Notes under the pieces: model-generated
The model's input: the letters and a program-made list of their open reading frames with translations, nothing else
Told to the model about the DNA's origin: nothing
Databases searched by the model: none
Sequence record: NZ_LR134467.1
Reading direction: 5' to 3' (one strand)
Length of the DNA stretch: 64,000 bases
DNA from: a plasmid
Shown here: positions 1,057-51,646 of the stretch, piece by piece
Position numbering within the stretch: position 1 is the first letter of the stretch
How the letters are laid out: every line of letters starts with the position of its first letter
Translations under genes and position numbers: made by a program

Positions 1057-1524
1057 ATGACTACCGCGAACGAACCCAAGCTCGCCAAGACGCTGCTCAA
1101 GCAGTACGACCGCCCCGCCTCGCTCGACAACCCGCGCTCGCCGCACCGTCCGGCGTCCGGCAACTTCGAGAAGTACGCCTGGCTGTTCATGCGCTTCTCG
1201 GGCATCGCCCTCCTCGTGCTCGTCTTCGGGCACGTCTTCATCATGCTCGCGCTGGACAGCCAGGGCGTGCACCGGATCAGCGCCGCCTTCGTCGCGCAGC
1301 GCTGGGCCAGCCCCTTCTGGCAGATCTGGGACATCACGATGCTGTGGCTCGCCCAGCTCCACGGCGGCAACGGCCTCCGCGTGATCATCGACGACTACGC
1401 CCGCAAGGACCGCACGCGGTTCTGGCTCAAGACCCTGCTCGTGCTGTCGATGATCCTCGTGGTCGGCCTCGGCTCGTACGCGCTCCTCTCGTTCGAACCG
1501 GCCTCCGTGCCCACCGCCCAGTAA
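1057..1524 (+). CDS. sdhD: succinate dehydrogenase hydrophobic membrane anchor subunit
   Basis: 155-aa membrane protein between sdhC and sdhA. Confidence 0.85.
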   Translation: MTTANEPKLAKTLLKQYDRPASLDNPRSPHRPASGNFEKYAWLFMRFSGIALLVLVFGHVFIMLALDSQGVHRISAAFVAQRWASPFWQIWDITMLWLAQLHGGNGLRVIIDDYARKDRTRFWLKTLLVLSMILVVGLGSYALLSFEPASVPTAQ

Positions 1525-1549
1525 CGGCCAGGAAGGACTCACCCGCATC

Positions 1550-3301
1550 ATGCAGGAACATCGTTACGACGTGGTGATCATCGGCGCCGGCGGCGCCGGT
1601 ATGCGCGCGGCCATCGAGGCCGGGCCGCGCGCCCGCACCGCCGTGCTCACCAAGCTCTACCCCACCCGCTCCCACACCGGCGCGGCGCAGGGCGGCATGT
1701 GCGCCTCGCTGGCCAACGTCGAGGAGGACAACTGGGAGTGGCACACCTTCGACACGGTCAAGGGCGGCGACTACATCGTCGACCAGGACGCCGCGGAGAT
1801 CATGGCCAAGGAGGCCATCGACGCGGTGCTCGACCTGGAGAAGATGGGCCTGCCGTTCAACCGCACGCCCGAGGGCAAGATCGACCAGCGCCGCTTCGGC
1901 GGACACACCCGCGATCACGGCAAGGCCCCCGTGCGCCGCGCCTGTTACGCCGCGGACCGCACCGGCCACATGATCCTGCAGACGCTGTACCAGAACTGCG
2001 TCAAGCACGACGTGGAGTTCTTCAACGAGTTCTACGTCCTCGACATCGCGCTGACGGAGACCGAGAACGGCCCCGTCGCGACGGGCGCCGTCGCCTACGA
2101 GCTGGCCACCGGCGAGATCCACGTCTTCCACGCCAAGGCGATCATCTTCGCCACCGGCGGCTCGGGCCGCATGTACAAGACCACCTCCAACGCCCACACC
2201 CTCACCGGTGACGGCATGGGCATCGTCTTCCGCAAGGGCCTGCCCCTGGAGGACATGGAGTTCCACCAGTTCCACCCGACGGGCCTCGCGGGCCTGGGCA
2301 TCCTCATCACCGAGGGCGTCCGCGGCGAGGGCGGCATCCTCCGCAACGTCGACGGCGAGCGCTTCATGGAGCGCTACGCCCCCACCATCAAGGACCTCGC
2401 GCCGCGCGACATCGTCGCCCGCTCGATGGTGCTCGAGGTGCTCGAGGGCCGCGGCGCCGGCCCGAACAAGGACTACGTGCTCCTGGATGTCACGCACATC
2501 CCGGAGGAGACCCTGATGGCCAAGCTGCCGGACATCATGGAGTTCTCGCGCACCTACCTCGGCGTCGACCCCGTCACCGAGCTGGTGCCCGTGTACCCGA
2601 CGTGCCACTACGTCATGGGCGGCATCCCCACCAACATCCACGGTGAGGTCCTGCGCGACAACGACACCGTCGTCCCCGGCCTGTACGCCGCCGGCGAGTG
2701 CGCCTGCGTGTCCGTGCACGGCGCCAACCGCCTCGGCACCAACTCGCTGCTCGACATCAACGTCTTCGGCCGCCGCTCCGGCATCGCCGCCGCCGAGTAC
2801 GCCAAGACCCACGACTTCGTGCCGCTCCCCGAGAACCCCTCGGAGATGGTCGAGAACTGGGTCGCCGCGATGCTCAGCGACCACGGCAACGAGAACGTCA
2901 TGGCGATCCGCACCGAGCTGCAGCAGACGATGGACAACAACGCCGCCGTCTTCCGCACCGAGAAGACCCTCTCGCAGGCCCTCGAGGACGTCCGTGCGCT
3001 GAAGAAGCGGTACGAGCACGTCACCGTCACCGACAAGGGCACCCGCTTCAACAGCGACCTGCTCGAGGCCATCGAGCTCGGCTTCCTGCTCGAGCTCGCC
3101 GAGGTCACCGTCGTCGGCGCCCTCAACCGCAAGGAGACCCGCGGCGGCCACGCCCGCGAGGACTACCCGAACCGCGACGACGAGAACTACATGGTGCACA
3201 CCATGGCGTACAAGGAGGGCGAGGGCCTGGAGGCCGGGATCCGTCTCGACACCAAGCCCGTCGTGCAGACCCGCTACGAGCCGATGGAGCGTAAGTACTG
3301 A
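1550..3301 (+). CDS. sdhA: succinate dehydrogenase flavoprotein subunit
   Basis: 583 aa with an N-terminal FAD-binding motif (VVIIGAGGAGMRAA) and the conserved HTGAAQGGM and HYVMGGIPT regions of SdhA/FrdA. Confidence 0.95.
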   Translation: MQEHRYDVVIIGAGGAGMRAAIEAGPRARTAVLTKLYPTRSHTGAAQGGMCASLANVEEDNWEWHTFDTVKGGDYIVDQDAAEIMAKEAIDAVLDLEKMGLPFNRTPEGKIDQRRFGGHTRDHGKAPVRRACYAADRTGHMILQTLYQNCVKHDVEFFNEFYVLDIALTETENGPVATGAVAYELATGEIHVFHAKAIIFATGGSGRMYKTTSNAHTLTGDGMGIVFRKGLPLEDMEFHQFHPTGLAGLGILITEGVRGEGGILRNVDGERFMERYAPTIKDLAPRDIVARSMVLEVLEGRGAGPNKDYVLLDVTHIPEETLMAKLPDIMEFSRTYLGVDPVTELVPVYPTCHYVMGGIPTNIHGEVLRDNDTVVPGLYAAGECACVSVHGANRLGTNSLLDINVFGRRSGIAAAEYAKTHDFVPLPENPSEMVENWVAAMLSDHGNENVMAIRTELQQTMDNNAAVFRTEKTLSQALEDVRALKKRYEHVTVTDKGTRFNSDLLEAIELGFLLELAEVTVVGALNRKETRGGHAREDYPNRDDENYMVHTMAYKEGEGLEAGIRLDTKPVVQTRYEPMERKY

Positions 3302-4068
3302 TGACCGCCGCAGTTGACACCCCCGCGTCCGTGCAGCCGCCCGTCCCGCCCGGCTCCACGATGGTCACGATCAAGGTCTACCGGTTCAACCCGGAGGATC
3401 CGGACGCGGCCGGCTGGCAGAGCTACCGGGTTCCCGCGCTCCCCTCGGACCGCTTCCTGAACCTGCTGCTCTACATCAAGGGCTACCTCGACGGCACCCT
3501 GACGTTCCGCCGCTCCTGCGCGCACGGCGTGTGCGGCTCGGACGCCATGCGCATCAACGGCGTCAACCGCCTGGCCTGCAAGATGCTGATGAAGGACTTC
3601 CTGCAGGAGGGCAAGGAGATCACCGTCACGGTCGAGCCGATCCGCGGCCTGCCCGTGGAGAAGGACCTCGTCGTCGACATGGAGCCCTTCTTCGACGCCT
3701 TCCGCGCCGTGAAGCCCTTCCTGATGACCTCGGGCAACGAGCCGACCCGCGAGCGGATCCAGTCCCCCACGGACCGCGAGCGCTTCGACGACACGACCAA
3801 GTGCATCCTCTGCGCCTGCTGCACCACCAGCTGCCCGGTGTACTGGATGGACGGCTCGTACTTCGGCCCCGCGGCCATCGTGAACGCGCACCGCTTCATC
3901 TTCGACAGCCGCGACGAGGGTGCCGCCGAGCGGCTCGAGATCCTCAACGGCGTCGACGGCGTGTGGCGCTGCCGCACCACCTTCAACTGCACCGACGCGT
4001 GCCCCCGCGGCATCCAGGTGACGAAGGCCATCCAGGAGGTCAAGCGCGCCCTCCTGTTCAGCCGCTAG
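3301..4068 (+). CDS. sdhB: succinate dehydrogenase iron-sulfur subunit
   Basis: 255 aa with a 2Fe-2S Cys cluster (CAHGVCGSDAM) and a 4Fe-4S cluster (CILCACCTTSCP). The start ATG overlaps the sdhA TGA (ATGA). Confidence 0.95.
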   Translation: MTAAVDTPASVQPPVPPGSTMVTIKVYRFNPEDPDAAGWQSYRVPALPSDRFLNLLLYIKGYLDGTLTFRRSCAHGVCGSDAMRINGVNRLACKMLMKDFLQEGKEITVTVEPIRGLPVEKDLVVDMEPFFDAFRAVKPFLMTSGNEPTRERIQSPTDRERFDDTTKCILCACCTTSCPVYWMDGSYFGPAAIVNAHRFIFDSRDEGAAERLEILNGVDGVWRCRTTFNCTDACPRGIQVTKAIQEVKRALLFSR

Positions 4069-4086
4069 AACCTTTACTGCAGCCCG

Positions 4087-4124
4087 GAAACGCCCCGGAC
4101 CTCACCCGAGGTCCGGGGCGTTTC
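4087..4124 (+). terminator. intrinsic-terminator-like perfect hairpin after sdhB
   Basis: GAAACGCCCCGGACCTC-accc-GAGGTCCGGGGCGTTTC: a 17-bp perfect stem with a 4-nt loop, 19 nt after the sdhB stop. Confidence 0.6.
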
Positions 4125-4148
4125 TCACTCCCGACGACAGGACCGCCG

Positions 4149-5309
4149 GTGGACCCGAGCCTGATCCGTACCCCGATCGACGGGACACTCCTGCGCGGTC
4201 ACCTCGACCTCGAACCGACGGCGCGCGGTCTCCTGCCGCACCGCCTCCCCGCCGCGGCCCGCCGCCGGATCCCCGACGCGCGGCTCGCTTCCGCGCAGGC
4301 GCAGCCCTCGGGGGTGCACCTCACCTTCCGGACCACCGCCACCGTCATCGAGCTCGAGACACTGCCGACCAAACGCGCGTACGCCGGCCTCCCGCCGCTG
4401 CCCGACGGTGTCTACGACCTCGTCGTGGACGGCCGCCTCGTCGCCCGGACGACGGTGCCGGGCGGGAACGTCGACACCATCGTCGACATGGTGACGCAGG
4501 AGGCCGAGCTCACCGAGGGGCCTTCCGGTAGAGCACGATTCGAGGAGCTGTCCGCGGGCGAGAAGAACGTCGAGATCTGGCTGCCCCACAACGAGATCAC
4601 CGAACTGATCGCGCTGCGCACGAACGCCCCGGTGCTACCGCAGCCGCCACGCGATCGCCTCTGGCTGCACCACGGCAGCTCGATCAGCCACGGTTCCAAC
4701 GCCACTCACCCGACCGGGACCTGGCCCGCGATCGCCGCGGCGGTCGGCTGCGTGGACCTGATCAACCTCGGCTTCGGCGGCAGCGCGCTCCTCGATCCGT
4801 TCGTCGCCCGCGCGATCCGCGACACCCCGGCCGACCTGATCAGCCTCAAGCTGGGCATCAACATCGCCAACGCCGACGTGATGCGGCTTCGCACCTTCAC
4901 CCCCGCCGTGCACGGCTTCCTCGACACGATCCGCGACGGGCATCCGACGACGCCCCTGCTGATCGCCTCGCCCATCCTGTGCCCGATCCAGGAGCACACC
5001 CCGGGCCCGGTGATGCCGGTCCCGTCGGCCGACGGCCTGCGTTTCGAGGCGACCGGGGACCCCGCCGAGGTCCGCGCGGGGAAGCTGACCCTGGCGGTCA
5101 TCCGGGAGGAGCTGGGGCGCATCGTCGCGGACCGGGCCGGTGAGGACCCACACCTGCACCTCCTCGACGGCCGCGCCCTCTACGGCGCGGACGACTACGC
5201 CCGCCTACCCCTCCCGGACGAACTCCACCCCGACGGGGCCGCCCACGCCCTGATCGGCACCCGGTTCGGCGAGCTCGCCTTCGGCCCGGGCGGCGCTTTC
5301 GCGCCGTAG
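4149..5309 (+). CDS. SGNH/GDSL-family hydrolase (lipase/esterase-like)
   Basis: Coding frame of ORF 3531..5309 downstream of sdhB. GTG at 4149 is the first start after the terminator. Contains a GSSISHG (GDS-like) block and a C-terminal DGAAH(A) block typical of SGNH hydrolases. The start is uncertain. Confidence 0.6.
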   Translation: MDPSLIRTPIDGTLLRGHLDLEPTARGLLPHRLPAAARRRIPDARLASAQAQPSGVHLTFRTTATVIELETLPTKRAYAGLPPLPDGVYDLVVDGRLVARTTVPGGNVDTIVDMVTQEAELTEGPSGRARFEELSAGEKNVEIWLPHNEITELIALRTNAPVLPQPPRDRLWLHHGSSISHGSNATHPTGTWPAIAAAVGCVDLINLGFGGSALLDPFVARAIRDTPADLISLKLGINIANADVMRLRTFTPAVHGFLDTIRDGHPTTPLLIASPILCPIQEHTPGPVMPVPSADGLRFEATGDPAEVRAGKLTLAVIREELGRIVADRAGEDPHLHLLDGRALYGADDYARLPLPDELHPDGAAHALIGTRFGELAFGPGGAFAP

Positions 5310-5373
5310 CGCACCACGCTGACACCACCTTCCACCTGGCAGTTTGCGCATTCTTCGGTCGCCTCTGTTGACG

Positions 5374-5392
5374 TGACACCACAATGGTGTCA
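5374..5392. promoter_or_regulatory. operator-like inverted repeat TGACACCA-caa-TGGTGTCA flanked by two TTGACG hexamers, immediately upstream of the RHH gene
   Basis: Seen directly. It sits between a -35-like TTGACG (5368-5373) and the ATG at 5404, which suggests a possibly leaderless transcript. Confidence 0.35.
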
Positions 5393-5403
5393 TAGTTGAC
5401 GCC

Positions 5404-5916
5404 ATGGACATCACGCCCTTCGTCAGCGACCTCCAGCGCCAGCTCATCGCCGCCGCCGAACGCGACTTCACCGACGCCGGCGACAACGGCGTCGACGACG
5501 CCCGCGCCTCGGCGGAACGTCTCGCGTCCGGGCTCGACGCGACCACCCGCCTCGTCCTCCTCGACGCCCTGTCCGCCGCGACCGGCGAGATCACGCGTGA
5601 TCTGGTGCCGGGATCCGTCGACCTGCGGCTGCGCGGCCGCGACGTCGAGTTCGTCGTCTCCGCGCCGCGCGCGGAGGCGGAGGAGGACTCCGCGTCCGCT
5701 CCCGGCGTCGACTTCGACGACACCAGCACCTCGCGCACCACGCTCCGCCTGCCCGACGCACTCAAGTCCCAGGTCGACGAGGCAGCGGCCGCGGAGGGCG
5801 TCTCCGTGAACACCTGGCTCGTACGGGCCGTCGCCGCCGCACTCGCCCCGCGCAAGCGACGAACCGCGCAGCGGGCACTCCGCACCGGTGACGACTTCGC
5901 CGGCTGGGCCCGCTGA
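5404..5916 (+). CDS. ribbon-helix-helix (Arc/HicB-like) DNA-binding protein with an N-terminal domain of unknown function
   Basis: The C-terminal RTTLRLPDALKSQVDEAAAAEGVSVNTWLVRAVAAAL is a classic RHH motif. The gene is first in a same-strand cluster with the DUF4097 and ABC genes. Confidence 0.7.
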   Translation: MDITPFVSDLQRQLIAAAERDFTDAGDNGVDDARASAERLASGLDATTRLVLLDALSAATGEITRDLVPGSVDLRLRGRDVEFVVSAPRAEAEEDSASAPGVDFDDTSTSRTTLRLPDALKSQVDEAAAAEGVSVNTWLVRAVAAALAPRKRRTAQRALRTGDDFAGWAR

Positions 5917-6022
5917 CCGGCAGCACCTTCCGAACCCACCCCCCACCACCACAACCGCACAGCCCGACGAGAACCCCGCACCCCGCGGGGTCGGCCGAGC
6001 GCACCCTCCGAAAGGTCCCACC

Positions 6023-6877
6023 ATGCCCACTTTCCCCACCCCCGAGCCCATCGACCTCGCCATCAACCTGCAGGTCGGCGACATCGACGTGATCGCGACC
6101 GACCGCACGGACACCGTGGTGACCGTGACCCCGAGCTCCCCGAACAAGGCGGCGGACCGGCGCGGTGCGGACGCGACCCGCGTCGAGTTCGACGGTGGCC
6201 GGCTCACCGTCGTCGGCCCCAAGCCCAAGCTCGGCCTCATGAGCTTCATCGGTGCGACCGAATCGGTCGACGTCACCGTCGAGCTGCCCGCGGGCTCCCG
6301 GTTCACCGCGGAGAGCGCCGTCGGCAGCGTCCGCACCGAGGGCCGCCTGGCCGCCACCCGCATCAAGGCGACCACCGGCACCGTCGAGCTGGATACGACC
6401 GGCGACCTGTGGCTGCGCGCCGGGCACGGGAACGCCACCGCCGGCACCGTGGACGGGACCGCCGAGATCACCGCCGACCACGGCCAGATCCGCATCGACT
6501 CGATCGCCCGTGACGCCGTGCTCAAGGCCTCCCACGGCAGCATCCGCATCGGCGAGACGAGCGGCGGCGTCGAGGCGAACCTGTCCTACGGCGATCTCGA
6601 CATCGACCGCGCCACCTCGTCGGTCAGCGCCAAGACCGCCTACGGCGCCATCACGCTGAACGAGGTCTCGGACGGCGTCATCGACCTCGAGAGCAGCTAC
6701 GGCAAGCTCACCGTCGGTGTGGCGGAAGGCGTTCCGGCCTGGCTCGACCTCTCCTCCAAGGAGGGCCGCGTCCGCAACCACCTCGACGAGAACCTCCCCG
6801 ACTCCATCACCGGCGACCACGTCGCCGTCCGCGCCCGGGCCAAGTTCGGCGACATCGACATCCGGCGCGCCCGCTGA
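6023..6877 (+). CDS. DUF4097 (LiaF/YvlB-like putative adhesin, beta-strand repeat) family protein
   Basis: ATG at 6023 with a GAAAGG RBS. Repetitive beta-strand blocks (GxVxLxT.., SYGDLDID, SSYGKLTV) are typical of DUF4097. Confidence 0.75.
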   Translation: MPTFPTPEPIDLAINLQVGDIDVIATDRTDTVVTVTPSSPNKAADRRGADATRVEFDGGRLTVVGPKPKLGLMSFIGATESVDVTVELPAGSRFTAESAVGSVRTEGRLAATRIKATTGTVELDTTGDLWLRAGHGNATAGTVDGTAEITADHGQIRIDSIARDAVLKASHGSIRIGETSGGVEANLSYGDLDIDRATSSVSAKTAYGAITLNEVSDGVIDLESSYGKLTVGVAEGVPAWLDLSSKEGRVRNHLDENLPDSITGDHVAVRARAKFGDIDIRRAR

Positions 6878-6903
6878 GCGCGCTCCCTCACCAGGAGAAC
6901 ATC

Positions 6904-7698
6904 ATGACCATGACCACCACCGCGGCCATCGAGGTCCGCGGCATCGAGAAGTCCTACGGCGACCTGCCCGTGCTGCGCGGCGTCGACTTCGACGTCGTCC
7001 CCGGCAGCATCTTCGCCCTGCTCGGCGCGAACGGCGCGGGCAAGACCACGCTGGTCCGCATCCTGTCCACGCTCCTGCGGCCCGACGCCGGCAGCGCAGC
7101 GGTGCACGGCTACGACGTGACCTCCGACGCCCAGCAGGTGCGCGAATCCATCAGCCTCACCGGACAGTTCGCCGCGGTCGACGAGATCCTCACGGGGCGC
7201 GAGAACCTGGTGCTGGTGGCGCGGTTGCGGCACCAGAGCGACCCGGGCGCCGTCGCCGACGAGCTGCTCCAGCGCTTCCGCCTCACCGACGCGGGCGGCC
7301 GGAAGGTCGGCACCTATTCCGGCGGCATGCGGCGCCGCCTCGACATCGCGATGAGCCTGATCGGCGATCCCGCGGTGATCTTCCTCGACGAGCCCACCAC
7401 CGGCCTGGACCCCGAGGCCCGGATCGACGTCTGGGAGATCGTGCAGGAACTCGCCGGCCGCGGCACGACGGTGCTGTTGACCACGCAGTACCTCGAGGAG
7501 GCCGAGCAGCTCGCCGACCGGATCGCGATCCTGCGCGACGGCCGGATCATCGCGAACGGGACCCTCGCCGAGCTCAAGCGGATGCTGCCCGCGGCGAAGG
7601 TCGAGTACGTCGAGAAGCAGCCCACGCTCGAGGAGATCTTCCTCGCGCTCACCGGAACCCGCACCGAATCCCCCACCACCTCCGAGGATCGATCATGA
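6904..7698 (+). CDS. ABC transporter ATP-binding protein (DrrA/ABC-2 type)
   Basis: Walker A (GANGAGKTT), the signature motif (YSGGMRRRL) and Walker B (IFLDEPTTGLD). Confidence 0.9.
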   Translation: MTMTTTAAIEVRGIEKSYGDLPVLRGVDFDVVPGSIFALLGANGAGKTTLVRILSTLLRPDAGSAAVHGYDVTSDAQQVRESISLTGQFAAVDEILTGRENLVLVARLRHQSDPGAVADELLQRFRLTDAGGRKVGTYSGGMRRRLDIAMSLIGDPAVIFLDEPTTGLDPEARIDVWEIVQELAGRGTTVLLTTQYLEEAEQLADRIAILRDGRIIANGTLAELKRMLPAAKVEYVEKQPTLEEIFLALTGTRTESPTTSEDRS

Positions 7699-8465
7699 CC
7701 ACCTACGCCGCCTCCGACACCGGCGCGCTGCTGGGCCGTTCGCTCAAGCACATCACCCGCAGCGCCGACACCATCATCACCACCGCGATCACGCCGATCG
7801 CCATGATGCTCCTGTTCGTCTACGTCTTCGGCGGTGCGATCAAGGGCAGCACCGGCGGCACGAACTACGTGAACTACCTGCTGCCGGGAATCCTGTTGAT
7901 GGCCATCGCCTCCGGCATCGCCTACACCGCGCTGCGGTTGTTCAACGACATGCAGGGCGGCATCTTCGAGCGCTTCCAGTCGATGCCGATCGCCCGCTCC
8001 TCCGTGCTCTGGGCGCACGTGCTGACCTCGATGGTGGCGAACGCGATCACGGTGGTGATCATCATCGGCGTGGGCCTGATCATGGGCTTCCGCTCGTCGG
8101 CGGGCCCGCTCGCCTGGCTCGGCGTCGCCGGGATCCTGGCGCTGTTCACGCTGGCGCTCACCTGGATCGCGGTGGCCGTCGGGCTGACGGCGAAGTCCGT
8201 GGACGGTGCCACCGGGTTCTCCTACCCGCTGATCTTCCTACCCTTCATCAGTTCCGCGTTCGTGCCCACCGACACCATGCCGGGACCGGTGCGCGCCTTC
8301 GCCGAGAACCAGCCGGTGACCTCGATCGTGAACACGATCTCCGCACTGCTGGCCGAGCGCCCCGTCGACACCGCCGATCTCGTCTCCGCCCTCGCCTGGT
8401 GCGCCGGGATCCTCGTCGTCGCGTACGGCGGCGCGATGCTCGCCTATCGGCGCCGGATCAGCTGA
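7695..8465 (+). CDS. ABC-2 family transporter permease
   Basis: ATG overlaps the ATPase stop (ATGA). Six-TM ABC-2 type permease. Confidence 0.85.
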   Translation: MTTYAASDTGALLGRSLKHITRSADTIITTAITPIAMMLLFVYVFGGAIKGSTGGTNYVNYLLPGILLMAIASGIAYTALRLFNDMQGGIFERFQSMPIARSSVLWAHVLTSMVANAITVVIIIGVGLIMGFRSSAGPLAWLGVAGILALFTLALTWIAVAVGLTAKSVDGATGFSYPLIFLPFISSAFVPTDTMPGPVRAFAENQPVTSIVNTISALLAERPVDTADLVSALAWCAGILVVAYGGAMLAYRRRIS

Positions 8466-8515
8466 ACCGCAGCGCCGCGCGCCGCCGGCCCCCCTGGGGC
8501 CGGCGGTGCGTGGCG

Positions 8516-10033
8516 TCAGGCGTCGACGGCTGCGGGCGCCTTCTGGTGCGTGGGCGTCGCGAAGAACTGCACCACCACGAAGGCGACGACGAGCGCCGCC
8601 GCGGGCAGCAGGATCGTCGAACCCATGGCATCTGCGAACGGGCCGCGCAGGAACTGCGGCAGCGCTCCGGTCGCCATCGCCCCGCCGCCCTGCGCGTGCC
8701 CGGTGGCGGCGGCGATCTTGTCCTCGATCTCGTGCTGCATGAGCACGCCGACCGCCGCGCTGCCGAGCACCGCGCCCACCTGCCGGGTCATGTTGTAGAC
8801 GCCCGATCCGGCCCCGGCGAGCGGCAGCGGCAGGTTCCGGTTCGCGGTCGCGGCGAGCGGACCCCAGATGAAGGCGTTGCCGACGCCCATGAGCGCGATC
8901 GGGGCGAGGATGCCGATCACCGGCGTGGTGTCGTGCGCGACGAGGGCCAGCCAGAACAGAGCGGCCGCGTTGGCGGCGAAGCCGAATCCGGTGAGGTACT
9001 TCGGGTGCACCTTGTCCGCGAGCTTGCCCGACGGGGCGGCCAGCGCCCCCGAGATCACGGCCAGCGGGATCAGCAGCAGCGCCGACCGGGTGGGCGTGAG
9101 CCCCATGGACTTCTGCGCGAACAGCATGAGCGGGATCGACATGCCGGTCACGGAGAAGCCCATGCAGGCGATCGCCGCGTTGGCGAGCGAGAAGTTCCGG
9201 TCCTTGAACAGCGTCAGCGACATCAGCGGCTCCGCGGCCTTGGACTGCCACCACACGAAGACGACGAGGAGCGCGAGGCCGCCGACGATCATCGTCCAGA
9301 TCGTCGCGGACCAGTCCTCCTTCTGCCCCTCCTGCAGCCCGAAGGTGAGCAGGAACAGGCCGAGCGCGCTGAGCACGATGCCGGGGATGTCGAGTTTGTG
9401 CTTGTGGGTGGGCAGGTTCGGCACCAGGATCACGGCGGCGATGAAGGCCGCGATGCCCACGGGCACGTTGACGAAGAAGACCCACTCCCAGCCGAGGCGG
9501 TCCACCAGCACGCCGCCGGCCAGCGGGCCGACGAGGATCGCGACGCCGGCGACGGAGCCCCACAGGGCCATCGCGGTGCCGCGCTTGTTCGGCGGGAAGG
9601 TGCGGGTGATGACGGCCATCGTCTGCGGGGTCATGAGGGCGGCGCCCAGGCCCTGCACGACGCGGGCCGCGATGAGCATGCCGATCGAGCCGGAGAGCCC
9701 GCACCACGCCGATGCCAGCGTGAAGACCACGAGGCCCGCCAGGTACAGCCGCTTGGGCCCGTACATGTCGCCGAGGCGTCCGGCGAGCAGCAGCGGCACG
9801 ACGTACGCCAGCAGGTAGCCGCTGGTCACCCAGATGACGCCGTTGAGGTCGGTGCCGTTGGTGAGGTCGATCCAGATCGCGTCCGTCGCGACCGAGACGA
9901 TCGTCGAGTCCACGAGGATCATGAAGAAGCCCACGACCAGCGCCCACAGCGCCGGCCAGGGCCGGTATCCGGACGGCAGGCCGGGCAGCGCGCCGGGGTC
10001 GTACTGCTTCGCAGTGGTGGCGTCATTCGTCAT
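8516..10033 (-). CDS. MFS transporter, DHA2 (EmrB/QacA, 14-TMS) family
   Basis: 505 aa with a characteristic MFS motif (GRLGDMYGPKR) and 14 predicted TM segments. Forms an operon with the upstream PadR gene. Confidence 0.9.
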   Translation of the reverse strand: MTNDATTAKQYDPGALPGLPSGYRPWPALWALVVGFFMILVDSTIVSVATDAIWIDLTNGTDLNGVIWVTSGYLLAYVVPLLLAGRLGDMYGPKRLYLAGLVVFTLASAWCGLSGSIGMLIAARVVQGLGAALMTPQTMAVITRTFPPNKRGTAMALWGSVAGVAILVGPLAGGVLVDRLGWEWVFFVNVPVGIAAFIAAVILVPNLPTHKHKLDIPGIVLSALGLFLLTFGLQEGQKEDWSATIWTMIVGGLALLVVFVWWQSKAAEPLMSLTLFKDRNFSLANAAIACMGFSVTGMSIPLMLFAQKSMGLTPTRSALLLIPLAVISGALAAPSGKLADKVHPKYLTGFGFAANAAALFWLALVAHDTTPVIGILAPIALMGVGNAFIWGPLAATANRNLPLPLAGAGSGVYNMTRQVGAVLGSAAVGVLMQHEIEDKIAAATGHAQGGGAMATGALPQFLRGPFADAMGSTILLPAAALVVAFVVVQFFATPTHQKAPAAVDA

Positions 10034-11199: not shown

Positions 11200-11225
11200 A
11201 CCCACCACTCTCGCGGGTATTGGTG

Positions 11226-12086
11226 TCAGTTTCCGTCCGCTATGAGACCGGATGTCCGCCAGGCCCGCGCGGGCGAGGGCTTCTTCCCGCACGACATGAT
11301 GCGCGGCGGCAGGTCCTCCGCGGACACCGTCATGGTCCACGAACGGCCGTCCTCGTGCCGGACGGTGACGGCGCCGGCCCCGTCGGAGCCGGTGCGCAGG
11401 ACGTCGGGCCCGACGGGGCCGAGGAGCTCGCGGACCGCGACCTCGGCGGCCTGCTCGGCGGGCGGGATCGACGAGCGGCCGCGGAGCCCGGCGGTCGCGA
11501 CGACGCCGGCGCGCGCGGCGTCGAGGGCCTCCTTGGCCTGCGCGCCGGTGACCCGGCCGTAGGTGTGCCCCGCGGGCAGCACGATGAGGACGGGCGCGAA
11601 GCGGTGCCCGCCCGTGTGGGAGCACTCCCACACCACCGGATCGGCGTAGCAGCCAGCGAGCGAGGCCGCGATGGGCCGCCCGAGGACGGCGCAGCAGACG
11701 TCGCGCTTGCCGTTGGTGCACACGAGGGCGATCGGGCCCGCCGGCTCGCCCGCGGACGGGTCGTCGAAGGGCAGCGCGGGGATCTCGGCGTAGTCGGCGA
11801 CGCTGAACATCCGCAGCGCGGTCTCCCCCGGCACCGAATTCGCGACGAACACCCGCTTGCTGCCGCGGAAGCTCCCGGCCCGGCCGGGCCGGCGGATGAG
11901 CAGCACCCTCAGGCCCCGGGACTCCGCGAACCGCTCGACGGCCTCGCCCACCTCCGGGGCGAAGGTCTCGCCCGAGAACGGGTCCCGGCCCCACCCGGCC
12001 TCGTTCTCGATGCACAACCAGCCGGTCTCGGTGGTCGCGGTACCGGGGAGCGGCTCATCGGTGAAACTCGAACAACGCTCCGTCAT
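11226..12086 (-). CDS. sucrase/ferredoxin-like family protein (thioredoxin-like fold)
   Basis: Internal ATG at 12086 (MTERCSSF...). CTNGKRDVCCAVLGRP...ECSHTGGHRFAPV matches the sucrase/ferredoxin-like family. The ORF part upstream of 12086 is Gly/Pro-rich noise. Confidence 0.65.
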   Translation of the reverse strand: MTERCSSFTDEPLPGTATTETGWLCIENEAGWGRDPFSGETFAPEVGEAVERFAESRGLRVLLIRRPGRAGSFRGSKRVFVANSVPGETALRMFSVADYAEIPALPFDDPSAGEPAGPIALVCTNGKRDVCCAVLGRPIAASLAGCYADPVVWECSHTGGHRFAPVLIVLPAGHTYGRVTGAQAKEALDAARAGVVATAGLRGRSSIPPAEQAAEVAVRELLGPVGPDVLRTGSDGAGAVTVRHEDGRSWTMTVSAEDLPPRIMSCGKKPSPARAWRTSGLIADGN

Positions 12087-46309: not shown

Positions 46310-46858
46310 ATGTTCTCCTACGACACCCGATCCGCCCTCGCGAGCGCCGCCGATCTGGTCAACACCGCCCCGGACGCGCGCACGGAGCGCCCCGAGCGCC
46401 TGCCCGACGTCGCCGCGCTCCGCGCCTTCGTGGAGCGCTGGGGCTGGACCGGCCCCATCCCGCTGCGCGACGACGAGCTGGATCGCGTGCACGCCGTGCG
46501 CCGCGTCCTGCGCGGCCTGTGGGACCTCGCGGGCGACGAGGCCGGCACCGTCGACCTGGTGAACCGGATGCTGCGCGACGCGGCGGTCCTGCCCCAGCTC
46601 GTGCGGCACGACGACTGGCCGTACCACCTGCACGGCTGGAACGACGCGACGCCCATCGCGGAGCGCTTCCTCGCCGAGCCCGCGATGGGCATGGTCGACG
46701 TGGTCCGCGCGGGTGCCCTCGACCGGCTGCGCCGGTGCGCCGCGCCGGACTGCGCCGGGGTGCTCGTGGACTTCAGCCGCAACAGCTCCCGCCGCTTCTG
46801 CGACGACGGATGCAACAACCGCCTGAACGTGGCCGCGTACCGCGCGCGCCGGGCCTGA
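46310..46858 (+). CDS. CGNR zinc-finger (ABATE domain) protein
   Basis: C-terminal CAAPDC...FCDDGCNNRLNVAAYRARR zinc finger. Confidence 0.8.
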   Translation: MFSYDTRSALASAADLVNTAPDARTERPERLPDVAALRAFVERWGWTGPIPLRDDELDRVHAVRRVLRGLWDLAGDEAGTVDLVNRMLRDAAVLPQLVRHDDWPYHLHGWNDATPIAERFLAEPAMGMVDVVRAGALDRLRRCAAPDCAGVLVDFSRNSSRRFCDDGCNNRLNVAAYRARRA

Positions 46859-46875
46859 CCCTTAGGATCAACGGC

Positions 46876-48057
46876 GTGGCGGAATCGACGGGTGCGGGCG
46901 GAGCGATCAGGGGCGTTCCCGGGCCCGATTACCTGGTCGCCGGGCGTTACCGCCTGACCTCCAAGATCGGCGGCGGCGGCATGGGCGCCGTGTGGCTCGC
47001 GCGCGACGAACGCCTGGACCGCGACGTGGCCGCCAAGCAGGTCATCTCCACCGAGGGCCTCACCCAGGAGGAGGCCGACGAGCTGCGTCGGCGCGCCCTG
47101 CACGAGGGCCGGCTCGCGGCCCGGCTGCAGCACCGCAACGCCGTCGCGATGTACGACGTGGCCCTCGACCGCGGCGAGCCCTGGCTGGTGATGGAGTACC
47201 TGCCCTCGCGCTCGCTCGCGCAGGTGCTGCACATGACCGGGTCCATGCCCGAGCGGCAGGTCGCGCAGATCGGCGCGCAGATGGCCGACGCCCTCATCGA
47301 GGCCCACGAGTCGGGGATCATCCACCGCGACATCAAGCCCGGCAACATCCTCATCGCGAACCGGGGCCGCGCGTCCGGCACCGTCAAGCTCTCGGACTTC
47401 GGCATCGCGCGGGCCAAGGGCGACGATGCCGGGCCCACCGGGATCATCACCGGCACGCCCGCCTACTTCGCGCCCGAGGTCGCCCGCGGCACCGAGCCCT
47501 CCGAGGCCTCCGACCTGTACTCGCTGGGCGCCACGCTGTACACCGCGCTCGAGGGTGCGCCGCCGTTCGGCGTCGACGAGGACTCGATCGCGCTGCTGCA
47601 CAAAGTCGCGCTGGGACAGATCAATCCGCCGAAGAACGACGGTCCGCTGATCCGCGTGATCCTGGACATGCTGCAGCCGAGCCCGAAGCGACGTCCCTCG
47701 CTCACCGACGCCCGGGACCGGCTCGCCGCGGTCGCGGCGGGCGGCGGCAACCCCGCCGCGATCCTCACCGCCCCGCTGCAGGCGACCGAGGGCGCGCCCG
47801 CGGTGTGGCTGCGGCGCACCGCCGGGGAACGCTCGTCGAGCGCCTCCGGGGATCGTGCGGCGACGGCGCGCACGGCATCGTCGGGCCCGATCGAGCGCAA
47901 GCGGCCCATCCCGCCCGCACCACGGCCCAGCACCTACGTGCCGCCGCCCGTGGCGCCGCCGTCGGGGATGTCGAACACCGTGCTCGCGGTGTGGATCATC
48001 GGCGGCTTCATCGTGCTCGCCGCGATCATCGCCGGCGTCATCATCGCGCTGGGCTGA
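46876..48057 (+). CDS. serine/threonine protein kinase with C-terminal TM anchor
   Basis: Hanks-kinase motifs (GGGGMGAVWLA, HRDIKPGNIL, DFGIA, GTPAYFAPE) and a C-terminal TM helix. GTG at 46876 is the first start after the upstream stop. Confidence 0.8.
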   Translation: MAESTGAGGAIRGVPGPDYLVAGRYRLTSKIGGGGMGAVWLARDERLDRDVAAKQVISTEGLTQEEADELRRRALHEGRLAARLQHRNAVAMYDVALDRGEPWLVMEYLPSRSLAQVLHMTGSMPERQVAQIGAQMADALIEAHESGIIHRDIKPGNILIANRGRASGTVKLSDFGIARAKGDDAGPTGIITGTPAYFAPEVARGTEPSEASDLYSLGATLYTALEGAPPFGVDEDSIALLHKVALGQINPPKNDGPLIRVILDMLQPSPKRRPSLTDARDRLAAVAAGGGNPAAILTAPLQATEGAPAVWLRRTAGERSSSASGDRAATARTASSGPIERKRPIPPAPRPSTYVPPPVAPPSGMSNTVLAVWIIGGFIVLAAIIAGVIIALG

Positions 48058-48069
48058 GCCCCGCTCCGG

Positions 48070-48741
48070 TCAGTCCGCGAGGTGGCGCGTGTGCGCCCAG
48101 CGTGTGAGGGCGTTGCGGTTGCTCTGCTGCGTCTTGCGGAGCACGTTCGAGGCGTGCGTCTCGACGGTCTTGACCGAGATGAACAGGTCCTCGGCGATCT
48201 CCCGGTAGGTGTAGCCGCGGGCCAGCAGGCGCAGGACCTCGAGTTCGCGCGGGGTGAGCGAGTCCAGCTCCGGGTCGAGTGCCGGCTCAGGCACGGGCGA
48301 GCGGCCCGTGAAGGAGTCCAGCACGAAGCCGGCGAGCCGCGGCGAGAAGACCGCGTCGCCCTCCGCGACGCGGCGCACCGCATCGGCCAGCTCCTCCCCC
48401 GAGATCGTCTTGGTGACGTAGCCGCGGGCGCCGGCGCGAATCGTGGCGATCACGTCCTCCGCGGCGTCGGAGACGCTGAGCGCGAGGAAGACCGGTGCCT
48501 TCTCCAGCTTCGCGCGGGGCGCGCCGTCGGTGACGCCGCGCAGCACGGCGACGCCGCCGCCGTCGGGCATGTGCACGTCCAGCAGCACCACATCGGGGCC
48601 CGTGGAGAGGATCCCCGCCACGGCCTCGCCGACGGTGCCGGCCTCGCCCACCACCTCGATGGAATCCTCACGGGCCAGTTCGGCGCGCACGCCGGACCGG
48701 AACACGCCGTGATCGTCGACCAGGAACACCCGGTAGCTCAC
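48070..48741 (-). CDS. two-component response regulator, NarL/LuxR family
   Basis: GTG at 48741 (VSYRVFLVDDH...). Receiver domain plus a LuxR HTH (LTPRELEVLRLLARGYTYREIAEDLFISVKTVETH). The longer ORF 48070..50163 is noise. Confidence 0.9.
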   Translation of the reverse strand: MSYRVFLVDDHGVFRSGVRAELAREDSIEVVGEAGTVGEAVAGILSTGPDVVLLDVHMPDGGGVAVLRGVTDGAPRAKLEKAPVFLALSVSDAAEDVIATIRAGARGYVTKTISGEELADAVRRVAEGDAVFSPRLAGFVLDSFTGRSPVPEPALDPELDSLTPRELEVLRLLARGYTYREIAEDLFISVKTVETHASNVLRKTQQSNRNALTRWAHTRHLAD

Positions 48742-50144
48742 GCACTCTCCTCCGCTGTCTCCGGCGCGACCGTCTCGTCGCCCTCGGCGAGCCTCGCCAT
48801 CGACAGCCGCACCTCGGTGCCCCGGCCCGGGGCGGTGCGGACCGCGACGCTGCCGCCGCGGCGCTCCATCCGGGACCGGATCGACTTGGCCAGGCCCTGC
48901 CGGTCCGACGGTACCCCGTCCGGGTCGAATCCGACGCCGCGGTCGCGGACGAAGACGGAGACCGCGGCGTCGTCGACCTCCGCGTAGGTGTCGATGCTCT
49001 CGCAGCCGGAGTGCTTGGCGGCGTTCACCATCGCCTCCTTCGCGGCGCCGAGCAGGGCGGTGAACCGGTCGTCGACGCCGAGCTCGGCGCCCTCGACGTC
49101 GCCGACGGTGATGACGTCGACCGCCACCGAGTGCGCGTCCTCGACGTCGGCCGCCGCGGCCTTGAGCGCCGCCGCGAGCGACTGGGCGGGCGCCTCGGAG
49201 CCGCCGAACAGCCACTCGCGGAGTTCGCGCTCCTGGCTGCGGGCCAGCCGCTTGACGGCGGCACCGTCGGCGGATTGCTTCTGGATGAGGGCGAGCGTCT
49301 GCAGCACGGAATCGTGCAGGTGCGAGGCGATCTCCTCGCGCTCGATCGTGCGGACCCGGGCGGCGCGCTCGGCGCCGAGGTCGCGCCACATGCGCACCCA
49401 GATCGGCACGGTGAGCAGCGCGACGCCCACCAGGGTGAGCACGACGGCGGCGAGCGCCGTCGGGAGCGCGGCCACGTCGACGCGGCCCAGGAAGACCACG
49501 GCCAGGCCGACGACCACGAGCGTGGCGCCGCCCAGCACGCGCAGCCAGGTGATGAGCCGGGAGCCGCCCGGCGTGGACGCCGGTGTCCGCGAAGCGGAAT
49601 CCGCCTCCCGCCAGACGAGGGCCGCGCCGATCCCGATGACGAGGACCGGGACCACGAAACCGGCGCTGGTGTTGCTCGCGACCGACGCGAGGGTCGCCGC
49701 GCCCACCACGCCGAGGACGGCCAGCGCGAGGCCCTGGCGGCGCTCGGCCGGGTCGGGGTGCTCGGTATCGGTGCCCGGGCGGCACATGAACCACAGCAGC
49801 GCGTACATGACCACGCCCGCGCCGAGCAGCGCGAGCAGGGTGAAGGCGATGCGGACCTTGGTGGCGTCGACGCCGAGATGGTCGGCGATGCCGCCGCACA
49901 CGCCGCCGATCACCGCGCCGCCGTTGCGGCGGTGCATCCGGGGGTACGACGGTGCCGGCGCCGGCTGCGCCGGGGGCGGTACGACGGCGGGCCGGGCGAC
50001 GGCGGGCGCGGGCGCGCGGAGATCGGCGGCCGGGCCCGGTTCGGCGCCCTGTTGCCACCCCTGCTGCCAGTTCTGCCAGCCCTGCTGCCACGCCTGCTGG
50101 CGAGCCTGGTGCCGCGCCCACCGGCGCTCTGCTCGTCTGCTCAT
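48738..50144 (-). CDS. sensor histidine kinase with N-terminal PspC domain (LiaS-like HisKA_3/HATPase)
   Basis: ATG at 50144. A PspC domain (RRNGGAVIGGVCGGIADHLGVDATKVRIAFTLLALLG), TM helices, an H-box (EIASHLHDSVLQTLA) and an ATPase domain. Confidence 0.85.
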   Translation of the reverse strand: MSRRAERRWARHQARQQAWQQGWQNWQQGWQQGAEPGPAADLRAPAPAVARPAVVPPPAQPAPAPSYPRMHRRNGGAVIGGVCGGIADHLGVDATKVRIAFTLLALLGAGVVMYALLWFMCRPGTDTEHPDPAERRQGLALAVLGVVGAATLASVASNTSAGFVVPVLVIGIGAALVWREADSASRTPASTPGGSRLITWLRVLGGATLVVVGLAVVFLGRVDVAALPTALAAVVLTLVGVALLTVPIWVRMWRDLGAERAARVRTIEREEIASHLHDSVLQTLALIQKQSADGAAVKRLARSQERELREWLFGGSEAPAQSLAAALKAAAADVEDAHSVAVDVITVGDVEGAELGVDDRFTALLGAAKEAMVNAAKHSGCESIDTYAEVDDAAVSVFVRDRGVGFDPDGVPSDRQGLAKSIRSRMERRGGSVAVRTAPGRGTEVRLSMARLAEGDETVAPETAEESA

Positions 50145-50192
50145 GATCCCTCGATGGTGGCACGGATCCTCGCCCGCGGGTATCGGGGAAGC

Positions 50193-50241
50193 CCCTGAAA
50201 GATCACCCCTCACCCCGAGGCGCGGCGCCGCGATTTCAGGG
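50193..50241. promoter_or_regulatory. 8-bp inverted repeat CCCTGAAA...TTTCAGGG (33-nt spacer) in the divergent HK / PspC-protein intergenic region
   Basis: Seen directly. Candidate response-regulator binding site or divergent promoter element. Confidence 0.25.
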
Positions 50242-50287
50242 TAGATCCCGATGGACCGGGGCGGCCGCGGCCCGCAGGATCGAAGGC

Positions 50288-51646
50288 ATGGATACGACAA
50301 CCCTCTCCAGCCAGCTCCGGCAGATGTGGGAGACCAGGCCGCTCCGGGCCCGCAACGCGCCGATCGCCGGCGTGTGCACGGGCTTCGCGCGCCGCTACCA
50401 GGTGGACGTCGCGCTGGTCCGCGCGGCGTTCATCGGGGCGACGGTGCTCGGTGGACTCGGTTTCGTCGCCTACATCGTCGGCCTCTTCGTGCTCCCCAAG
50501 GAGTCCGAGTACGCCTACGGCACCCCCGTGCAGCGCTCCGGCCCGCCCACCATCGTCCTCATCATCGCGGCGGTGCTCGCGGTGACCTTCGGCGGCGGCA
50601 TGAGCTCCTCGTGGCCCGGCGCCGGATTCATCAGCCTCGCCCTGCTCCTCGCGGGCTGGTACGCGCTGCACCAGCGCCTGCCCGTGCCCCCGCCCGGCAC
50701 CGCGGTCTCCGCGCGGCTCGCGCCGCCGGCCCCCGTCGGGGCCTGGCAGCCGCCCGCGGCGCAGTTCCCGTGGCAGCCCGTGTGGACGCCGCCCGCCGGC
50801 ACGGACCCGACGACGCCGCAGGCCGCCGCCCCGGAGCAGGCGACCGAAGGGCCCGCGGGCCCGAGCGCGCAGACGCCGCCGGCCGCGGCACCGTCGGAGC
50901 CCCTCAACCTGCAGAAGGCACCGGCGCCCGAACAGGCCCCGCGCGTGCAGACGCAGACCACCGAGGAGATCCACCCGCCCCGCTGGGATCCGTTGGGCGC
51001 CGCGCCCTTCGCGTGGGACCTGCCCGAGCCGGCGGCGTCGAACGCCCCGGTCCCGGTGGAGCCCAAGCGTCGCACCCGGATCACGCCCGTGACGCTCGGC
51101 ATCGCGCTGCTCACGGCCGCGGCGATCGCCACCGTCAACCTCGTTCTCGGCGTGTCGATCTCGCCCGTCGTCGCCGCCGCCATCGTGCTCGGCGTGGTGG
51201 GCACCGGCCTCGTCGCCGGCGCCTTCCGCCGCGGCGGTTACGGCCTGCTCGCCGTCGCGATCCCCCTGGCGGGCTTCGTGATCGTGGGCACCATGGCGCA
51301 GAACGTGATGAGCGGCTTCGCCGATGCTCCGCGCGGCGACCGGAACTTCACCGTCGCCGATCCGAACGCCCTGCAGGAGCAGTACATCCTGCAGGCGGGC
51401 TCGCTGAAGCTCGACCTGCGGCAGCTCACCCTGGACCACGACCGCACCCTGACCACTCGAGTGGGCTTGGGCGAGACCAAGATCCAGGTACCGGAGGGCA
51501 TGAACGTGAAGGTGCGCTGCACCGTCACCGTGGGTGACGCGCAGTGCCCCGACGGCCTGAACGCGACGCCGAAGCCCGGAGCCCCGACCCTGACGATCGA
51601 CGCCCAGAGCAACATGGGCAGTGTGGAGGTGGACCGTGTCCGCTGA
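50288..51646 (+). CDS. PspC-domain membrane protein with C-terminal LiaF/DUF4097-like beta-rich domain
   Basis: An N-terminal PspC domain (RNAPIAGVCTGFARRYQVDVALVRAAFIGATVLGG), a Pro-rich linker, TM helices and a beta-strand-rich C-terminus. Confidence 0.8.
   Translation: MDTTTLSSQLRQMWETRPLRARNAPIAGVCTGFARRYQVDVALVRAAFIGATVLGGLGFVAYIVGLFVLPKESEYAYGTPVQRSGPPTIVLIIAAVLAVTFGGGMSSSWPGAGFISLALLLAGWYALHQRLPVPPPGTAVSARLAPPAPVGAWQPPAAQFPWQPVWTPPAGTDPTTPQAAAPEQATEGPAGPSAQTPPAAAPSEPLNLQKAPAPEQAPRVQTQTTEEIHPPRWDPLGAAPFAWDLPEPAASNAPVPVEPKRRTRITPVTLGIALLTAAAIATVNLVLGVSISPVVAAAIVLGVVGTGLVAGAFRRGGYGLLAVAIPLAGFVIVGTMAQNVMSGFADAPRGDRNFTVADPNALQEQYILQAGSLKLDLRQLTLDHDRTLTTRVGLGETKIQVPEGMNVKVRCTVTVGDAQCPDGLNATPKPGAPTLTIDAQSNMGSVEVDRVR

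Follow-up and report, generated by a model that had tools for sequence, protein, structure and literature searches.

The window analysed here is a 64,000-nucleotide (nt) sequence from Tsukamurella tyrosinosolvens (NZ_LR134467.1), and the stretch studied within it, positions 5367-8465, holds a cassette of four genes, designated G1 to G4, preceded by a short array of repeated elements (Table 1). The species assignment follows from near-identical proteins. G1 encodes a ribbon-helix-helix (RHH) regulator, G2 a Toastrack (DUF4097) protein, and G3 and G4 the ATPase and permease of an ATP-binding cassette (ABC) transporter. An earlier note on this DNA, made from the letters alone, had described four same-strand genes with an ATGA overlap joining the ABC pair, and the coordinates bear this out. 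The cassette is a real and widespread regulatory-transport unit; it is probably a self-contained exporter operon repressed by its own RHH protein, in which the Toastrack protein acts as the repressor's signalling partner.

Table 1. Features of the cassette, its promoter region and the other loci considered, with positions in the window.
Feature	Position	Strand	Basis or remark
G1, RHH regulator, 170 amino acids (aa)	5404-5916	+	Open reading frame (ORF)
G2, Toastrack (DUF4097) protein, 284 aa	6023-6877	+	GAAAGG precedes ATG
G3, DrrA-like ABC ATPase, short form, 264 aa	6904-7698	+	Profile matches
G4, ABC-2 (DrrB-family) permease, 256 aa	7695-8465	+	ATG overlaps G3 stop (ATGA)
Putative distal operator box TGACACCA	5320-5327	+	54 nt start-to-start 5' of palindrome left arm
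First GTTGACG	5367-5373	+	Direct sequence reading
-35-like hexamer TTGACG	5368-5373	+	Part of sole promoter-like site in 5200-8700
Predicted core operator TGACACCA-caa-TGGTGTCA	5374-5392	+	Inverted boxes; fills -35/-10 spacer
Left box TGACACCA, caa, right box TGGTGTCA, then ta	5374-5381; 5385-5392
-10-like hexamer CATAGT	5391-5396	+	TG just 5'; shares right box's last two bases
Second GTTGACG	5395-5401	+	Then cc, ATG at 5404
GC-rich hairpin, 21 bp, perfect; candidate bidirectional terminator	8472-8516	strand-neutral	Between convergent G4 and MFS transporter genes
sdhCDAB	1057-4068		sdhB itself 3301-4068
SGNH/GDSL hydrolase gene, SsfX3-like N-terminal domain	about 4140-5309		Between sdhB and cassette
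Ser/Thr protein kinase	46519-48057		Beside PspC locus
LuxR/GerE response regulator	domains in ORF 48073-50163	-	Just 3' of PspC kinase
PspC-domain histidine kinase	48741-50300	-	Profile matches
PspC + LiaF-like_C protein	50288-51646	+	Divergent; LiaF-like_C 25.2 bits

Relatives of G1 form 575 protein clusters at E <= 1e-10 and occur at 518 or more loci in species-representative genomes as well as on 42 actinobacterial plasmids. The best 80 of these at least 518 genome loci were taken for comparison; they come from Tsukamurella, Gordonia, Rhodococcus, many Microbacteriaceae, Arthrobacter, Cellulomonas, Angustibacter, Pedococcus and metagenome-assembled genomes. A distant branch, in which G1 is 45-55% identical to the window protein, was covered by Saccharopolyspora, an Acidimicrobiia genome, a 'Chloroflexi' genome and 80 soil-metagenome loci. 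Two Streptomyces plasmid cassettes and the gene lun1 were examined besides these, and 165 related loci were compared in total, from Tsukamurella to Streptomyces, Acidimicrobiia and soil metagenomes.

G1 belongs by profile to the RHH (Arc/MetJ/CopG) superfamily. Residues 110-148 match Pfam HicB at 23.0 bits (cut-off 21 bits), with Pfam RHH_1 at 20.4 bits (cut-off 20.5) and NCBIfam YlcI_YnfO_N at 29.7 bits (cut-off 30), and the best PDB matches, VapB26, AtaR, Arc, AmrZ and CopG, are all weak and all RHH proteins. The AlphaFold2 (AF2) monomer model consists of a helical hairpin (residues 4-65), a beta-hairpin (72-85), a disordered acidic linker, the RHH helices (118-131 and 135-147) and a disordered tail. 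The earlier placement of the RHH at the C-terminus holds for the domain itself and needs correction for its position, since a conserved 22-aa tail follows, whose last residues are GWAR in the window; nearly all relatives close with (F/Y)(A/T)GW(A/V)R. Between orders, G1 proteins share about 70% identity. As a dimer or oligomer it would bind short DNA boxes, which is consistent with the phased boxes found 5' of every G1 examined. The linker tolerates large length changes, as insertions of 80-150 aa between the N-domain and the RHH are present in P0295 (331 aa; Gly/Ser-rich) and P0381 (259 aa; Pro/Ala-rich). Four long relatives that were considered as G1-G2 fusions (P0274, P0377, P0245 and P0258) proved to be read-through or frameshift artefacts. 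Gene callers often extend G1 5' into the operator, and N-termini such as 'MCHDGAM...' are translated box (P0274, P0295, P0244). Public names for G1 include 'histidine kinase', 'response regulator receiver', 'HicB antitoxin' and 'HicB-like protein involved in pilus formation', none of which is supported by any domain found; the RefSeq name 'HicB antitoxin' is a misnomer.

The DUF4097 assignment of the second gene, already made in the earlier note, stands on homologues and structural comparison rather than on a Pfam match of the window protein itself, which gives none at E <= 1. PF13349 'Toastrack DUF4097' matches 43 of 44 aligned G2 homologues (64-94% identical), with a best E of 3.5e-12, and NCBIfam LiaG matches G2 weakly (24 bits, E = 1.9e-5). 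The AF2 model is all-beta with a predicted local distance difference test score (pLDDT) of 93.4, and its top Foldseek matches are the DUF4097/DUF2807 crystal structures 4QRK, 3PET, 3LYC, 3LJY and 4OPW (probability 1.0, E = 1.5e-5 to 2e-3), so that the modelled fold places G2 in the Toastrack (DUF4097/DUF2154/DUF2807) family. Two of these structures, 4QRK and 4OPW, serve as Toastrack references in Ravi et al. 2024 (PMC11237479). No long hydrophobic stretch or signal peptide was seen on reading the G2 sequence by eye, with no predictor run, and the protein should be cytoplasmic and soluble.

The assignment of G3 and G4 to an ABC ATPase and an ABC-2 permease is confirmed by PF00005 ABC_tran (104 bits) and PF01061 ABC2_membrane (75 bits), respectively. 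More specific models stay under their thresholds: TIGR01188 drrA scores 299 bits against a cut-off of 312 for G3, and TIGR00025 scores 82 bits against a cut-off of 147 for G4. The pair is therefore best described as a predicted DrrAB-like ABC-2 exporter at the family level, not at the equivalog level. Pfam reports no DrrA1-3_C domain in G3, and a substrate-binding protein gene is absent among the four. Two ABC subtypes are seen under near-identical G1-G2 pairs, even within a genus (Rhodoglobus L012 vs L057; Galbitalea L010 vs L053): the window type is about 75% identical to the window in both G3 and G4, and the second type about 58% in G3 and 37% in G4, where the wider gap between G3 and G4 suggests a longer ATPase. 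In L081 and L082 the ATPase is longer and carries a DrrA1-3_C domain.

A promoter scan of 5200-8700 returned a single site, TTGACG-17-CATAGT, lying directly before G1. The earlier note had described a symmetric element here, GTTGACG-TGACACCA-caa-TGGTGTCA-ta-GTTGACG; it is present, starting at 5367 rather than 5368 and ending 2 nt rather than 3 nt before the ATG. Its symmetry is confined to the inner 8 + 8 bp, which end 11 nt before the ATG, and the outer GTTGACG pair is a direct repeat restricted to Tsukamurella and Gordonia. In other lineages a fourth box, TGGTGnC, occupies the place of the second GTTGACG. An in-frame TGA at 5374-5376, inside the left box, excludes upstream starts, so the ATG at 5404 is the sole possible start of G1. 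Given this stop codon, the promoter position and the short distance from palindrome to ATG (10-11 nt), the natural reading is a predicted leaderless transcript whose first base is the A of the ATG or its neighbour. Leaderless transcripts are common in actinobacteria, and the earlier proposal that the -35-like hexamer and its spacing suit one is strengthened by the sole promoter site, by its fixed distance from the ATG and by a box array that is kept in place against the ATG.

Rarity within the window is not what makes the palindrome credible, as an isolated 8 + 8 palindrome with up to three mismatches occurs at least once in 11 of 100 shuffles of the 64 kb; it is taken as real because it is kept in register in every related locus. 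The pattern TTGAC(G/A)-TGACACCA-N3-TGGTGTCA is in register in 80 of 80 genome loci, with one mismatch in two, and the palindrome lies 10 nt from the ATG in 61 and 11 nt in 18 of the 79 close loci measured. Boxes were mapped as the 8-bp sequence TGGTGYCA or its complement with at most one mismatch. A span of 130 nt typically contains four in each locus, where the background density is 1.1 per kb. Their modal starts relative to the ATG are -50, -29, -18 and -7, sometimes with -71, giving a phasing of 11 or 21 bp; the core boxes begin at -29/-30 and -18/-19, and a + box at -7 is present in 60 of 81 close loci. The distal box lies 21-22 nt 5' of the left arm in most other loci (modal start -50), as compared with 54 nt in the window. 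The -35 element reads TTGAC(G/A) in close loci, with TTGAC/TTGC variants at the same place in more distant ones. The -10-like hexamer is CAyTAT or CAyGAT in other loci, in which the second base stays A and the sixth T; in the loci read it follows the -35 by exactly 17 nt, with 6-7 nt between its end and the first base of the ATG.

Equivalent box arrays are found in 83 more distant loci and likewise in the two Streptomyces plasmid cassettes and before lun1. In the distant branch the boxes vary in sequence (TGGTGCCA, or GAGCCA paired with TGGCTC) with unchanged geometry, and the -29 box has the same orientation as the -18 box in 31 loci vs 16. Because positions are kept where complementarity is lost, the boxes are better read as protein-binding DNA sites than as RNA structure. 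In the subset of loci scanned further, the listing contains no phased pair from G1 to G4, and box density in the intergenic gaps from G1 to G4 is about background; the few phased pairs outside the four genes include three at -154 to -172, just beyond the upstream span, which are read as additional boxes farther 5'. The lack of listed internal pairs, together with a median G2-G3 gap of 23 nt in the compared loci, fits one regulated promoter for all four genes. Within the window, TGACACCA occurs four times against 0.88 expected, and three of these copies are at the operator. The fourth (11221-11228, minus strand), considered as a further operator, is a lone copy with no phased partner and is probably due to chance. 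A full-text literature search with the box sequence gave unrelated primer matches only. Conserved in register and filling the -35/-10 spacer, the palindrome is thus a strong candidate for an operator inside the promoter, as had been suggested from the window alone.

Conserved co-occurrence of the four genes had been named beforehand as a test on which the proposal could fail, and the outcome is strongly in its favour. Among assessable loci, G1 has a G2 homologue directly after it in all 146, G3 is in place in 117 of 121 and G4 in 103 of 108. Different genomes, and Streptomyces plasmids too, surround the cassette with different genes, and it is for this reason regarded as self-contained. Its inheritance is that of two modules. 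In pairwise distance matrices over 100 complete cassettes, G1 and G2 correlate at r = 0.96 and G3 and G4 at r = 0.93, and every cross pair falls at 0.47-0.54. The recombinant locus L120 shows the same division, with G1 and G2 at distances of 0.52 and 0.62 from Tsukamurella and G3 and G4 close at 0.24 and 0.25; a close G2 goes with a far G4 in 378 locus pairs. In Tsukamurella asaccharolytica (L003, 6001-9020) the same chromosomal locus holds G1 and G2 at 95% and 94% identity and the same convergent MFS (major facilitator superfamily) gene, which G2 here adjoins, with the ABC pair cleanly missing, which indicates that the G1-G2 pair can persist alone; in L091 and L136 unrelated genes come after G2. 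These comparisons indicate that the cassette is built of a regulatory and a transporter pair that meet between G2 and G3. The two-module co-inheritance points to G1 as the closest functional partner of G2.

The lunaemycin gene cluster on plasmid pSLUN1 of Streptomyces lunaelactis (NZ_CP026305.1; L166, 3860-7053, and L167, 2065-5000) carries the modules as separate G1-G2 and G2-G3-G4 sets. The lun1-lun2 genes, at the edge of the cluster, form a G1-G2 pair that has a box array of its own; P450 and ferredoxin genes come next. The lun27-26-25 genes, 50 kb away, are G2-G3-G4 homologues 35%, 60% (G3 to Lun26) and 42% (G4 to Lun25) identical to the window proteins, and a box array lies about 135 nt upstream of them without an intact G1. 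The orphan array and the distant G1-G2 pair make action of G1 in trans plausible, and the arrangement suggests both such regulation and a tie to antibiotic export. DUF4097 genes stand alongside homologous ABC pairs in the lunaemycin and kettapeptin clusters, and the table of the lunaemycin paper lists further DUF4097 homologues in himastatin and TMC-86A-type epoxyketone clusters (PMC9866976). Its authors ascribed self-resistance to Lun25/26 and to the aurantimycin and polyoxypeptin homologues, by homology alone (PMC9866976).

The reading we favour with some confidence, an autorepressed exporter operon with G2 as signalling partner of G1, can be set out as follows. One sigma-A-type promoter would produce a leaderless G1-G2-G3-G4 transcript, and G1 dimers would occupy the phased 8-bp boxes (starting at 5320, 5374 and 5385 in the window). 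The spacer between -35 and -10, with part of the -10 itself, lies under these boxes, and bound G1 would in this way block the promoter and repress its own operon. The N-terminal helical domain of G1 probably links dimers for cooperative binding. G2 is a likely signal-dependent partner of G1, as it is invariably present, is co-inherited with G1 and has the fold by which the Lia and Vra systems modulate their regulators. Binding of G2 to G1 is most likely, by way of the repressor's conserved GW(A/V)R tail or its N-domain, and G2 would convert an inducing signal into either release or tightening of repression. The output of G3 and G4 would be export, probably of a hydrophobic antibiotic-like or envelope-derived compound.

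A bolder version, possible and still doubtful in our estimate, makes the RHH-Toastrack pair a new kind of cytoplasmic signalling switch, widespread in Actinobacteria, in which G2 senses how the exporter is working, or itself binds the hydrophobic antibiotic that is exported, and captures or releases G1 via the GW(A/V)R tail. If so, induction would be coupled to the transporter in a 'flux-type' manner without a kinase, and stand-alone cassettes would be inducible resistance determinants against the antibiotics of neighbouring actinomycetes.

Several points weigh against the favoured reading. The G1 monomer model is poor (pLDDT 59), and its N-domain (residues 1-86) gave no significant sequence match and no match to a solved fold. 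No genuine G1-G2 fusion was found among database relatives. Adjacency alone may partly explain the G1-G2 correlation, yet the correlation is poor for G2 and G3, which are neighbours too. Co-variation of the RHH beta-strand (RTTLRL vs R[LI]NLRL) with the box (GTGTCA vs GTGCCA) was tried as a sign of recognition and set aside: it is suggestive between the main branches and is broken by L122, L136, L142 and L152, where RINLRLP proteins occur with both TGGTGCCA and TGGTGTCA boxes. The published gene table of the polyoxypeptin cluster contains the ABC pair and no DUF4097 gene, and the antibiotic-cluster link as a whole is an anecdotal lead on the class of substrate, not evidence. Literature searches for DUF4097 with HicB, RHH or ABC returned no experimental paper on the operon.

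The most serious alternative, which we consider unlikely, is that G1 is a plain autorepressor and G2 a cytoplasmic accessory of the exporter, serving the ABC ATPase as a docking platform or as a handler of substrate or lipid. It would account for the ABC pair that follows G2 in about 96% of assessable loci and for the DUF4097 genes that adjoin DrrAB-like pairs in antibiotic clusters without an adjacent G1, as in lun27-26-25, and it has a parallel in the proposal that Toastrack domains form a sub-membrane assembly platform (Ravi et al.; PMC11237479). Against it, G2 evolves with G1 (r = 0.96) rather than with G3 and G4 (r of about 0.5). The ABC pair has been swapped under unchanged G1-G2, G1-G2 survive without ABC genes (L003, L091, L136 and lun1-lun2), and G1 without G2 is never seen (146 of 146).

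The earlier note further suggested that the cassette may be a Lia/Bce-like envelope-stress module, with the RHH protein in place of or beside a two-component system; the reading weighed here makes it an output of the circuit at 48-52 kb, the RHH protein acting in addition to the two-component system there. A Toastrack-type domain would be shared by both loci, and cross-talk has a precedent in Listeria, where overexpression of a PadR-DUF1700-DUF4097 operon induces lia genes (PMC6624303). The PspC locus, the sole two-component locus seen, does exist at 48-52 kb; its LiaF-like_C match falls below the 29-bit cut-off. A distance of 43 kb separates the loci, the cassette brings a regulator, a candidate operator and a single promoter-like site of its own, and elsewhere, Streptomyces plasmids included, it lies among unrelated genes. 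No LuxR-type site stands out beside the boxes in the upstream consensus, no dedicated search having been made. The cassette itself has no LiaI-LiaF-TM, PspA/LiaH, histidine kinase or BceB/FtsX-type permease, and its wiring to the PspC locus is very improbable.

Still less credible is a type II toxin-antitoxin pair in which G1 is a HicB-like antitoxin and G2 a novel toxin. In its gene order, an RHH autorepressor with a conserved tail and then a partner gene, the pair does resemble such modules, the HicB model passes its cut-off on the RHH segment, and the best PDB matches of G1 are the antitoxins VapB26 and AtaR. That HicB match covers only the RHH part, however, and neither a HicA gene nor a HicB_lk_antitox N-domain was found, so the cassette is not a HicAB system. 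G2 is a 284-aa structural beta-helix rather than a HicA of about 60 aa, with no catalytic motif noted. High identity of G1 across orders, near-constant attachment of the ABC genes and a PADLOC result on the four proteins of generic ABC-ATPase similarity with no defence-system assignment would all be atypical. Least probable of all is that the palindrome is an RNA hairpin, either the terminator of the upstream hydrolase gene or a translational element: it would form an 8-bp stem and a 3-nt loop 65 nt after the stop of that gene, but the element goes with G1 while the upstream gene differs between loci, distant-branch boxes are mostly direct repeats that have lost pairing and kept position, the further boxes at 11- and 21-bp phasing are those expected for binding to one face of DNA, and an Rfam search of 4000-10000 gave no match.

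Beyond the cassette, the hairpin after G4 probably marks the 3' end of the operon as a bidirectional terminator of the U-tract-less actinobacterial kind. It has a folding energy of -52.8 kcal/mol (z = -6.4), a value equalled by 0 of 200 shuffles; a T-run is missing after it, and it is not in the list of the terminator scan. On the 5' side, the cassette had been placed directly downstream of sdhB, which overlooks the SGNH/GDSL hydrolase gene between them; this gene has no evident connection with the cassette. No biosynthetic genes were seen adjoining the window cassette, which has the hydrolase gene 5' and the MFS transporter gene 3'.

Some hosts of the cassette, Tsukamurella and Gordonia among them, are opportunistic pathogens. 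Should the exporter act on antibiotics, as is assumed for its lunaemycin and aurantimycin-type relatives, the cassette would be an inducible element of intrinsic resistance. The predicted operator boxes and promoter are defined precisely enough for the design of electrophoretic mobility shift assay (EMSA) probes and reporters.

The gene combination was thought not to be a named system, which is fair, although it had already been recorded: Ravi et al. 2024 (mSystems, PMC11237479) described an actinobacterial operon of Toastrack, ABC ATPase and permease in which an RHH protein replaces the GntR regulator of a membrane-anchored Toastrack-ABC operon in Proteobacteria and Bacteroidetes. With its RHH protein, Toastrack protein, ABC ATPase and permease, the window cassette is a member of this actinobacterial type, which that study covers in a single main-text sentence and two supplementary ones, without describing an operator, a promoter, its distribution or any test. 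The GntR version of Proteobacteria differs in combining its membrane-anchored Toastrack with a DUF2884 lipoprotein, where the cassette has an apparently soluble G2 and no lipoprotein gene among its four. No paper found in our searches describes the box array, the leaderless promoter, the soluble Toastrack, the conserved G1 tail or the two-module inheritance; the combination of genes is thus known, and the operator, leaderless promoter and two-module structure are apparently new.

Among better studied regulators, the RHH repressors omega of pSM19035, Arc, Mnt, CopG and MetJ bind arrays of short repeats that cover promoters. The cassette appears similar in that its boxes lie about one helical turn apart, direct or inverted, over the promoter; G1 differs in its extra 90-aa N-terminal domain and its conserved C-terminal tail, and its binding to the boxes is a prediction. 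On the transport side, G3 and G4 are homologous to the DrrAB-type exporters of antibiotic clusters (DrrAB; ArtJ/K, PlyJ/K and Lun25/26; PMC9866976, PMC3943440); beside the window cassette, in contrast, no biosynthetic genes were seen. Bce-type modules pair an FtsX permease bearing a large extracellular domain with BceRS, whereas G4 is a 256-aa ABC2_membrane protein with no adjacent two-component system, and the cassette is not of this type.

The likeness to Bacillus LiaFSR/LiaG and Staphylococcus VraTSR lies in the proposed role of G2, as in these systems a transcriptional regulator is modulated by a Toastrack domain (the LiaF C-terminus, LiaG or VraT), one anchored in the membrane and acting on a histidine kinase. 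The cassette has no kinase, response regulator, LiaI-LiaF-TM or PspA homologue, its output is an ABC-2 exporter, and it does not belong to the Lia type. Closest in logic among experimentally studied systems is the lltR operon of Listeria monocytogenes, which is autorepressed and rises more than 100-fold on derepression (PMC6624303). Here too a small repressor is encoded with a Toastrack protein in an autorepressed operon; the repressor is a PadR winged helix-turn-helix protein rather than an RHH protein, a membrane HAAS/DUF1700 protein is present, and there is no ABC transporter. Set beside these relatives, the cassette offers a compact test case for communication between Toastrack proteins and transcription factors, a question it shares with the Lia, Vra and Psp-associated systems.

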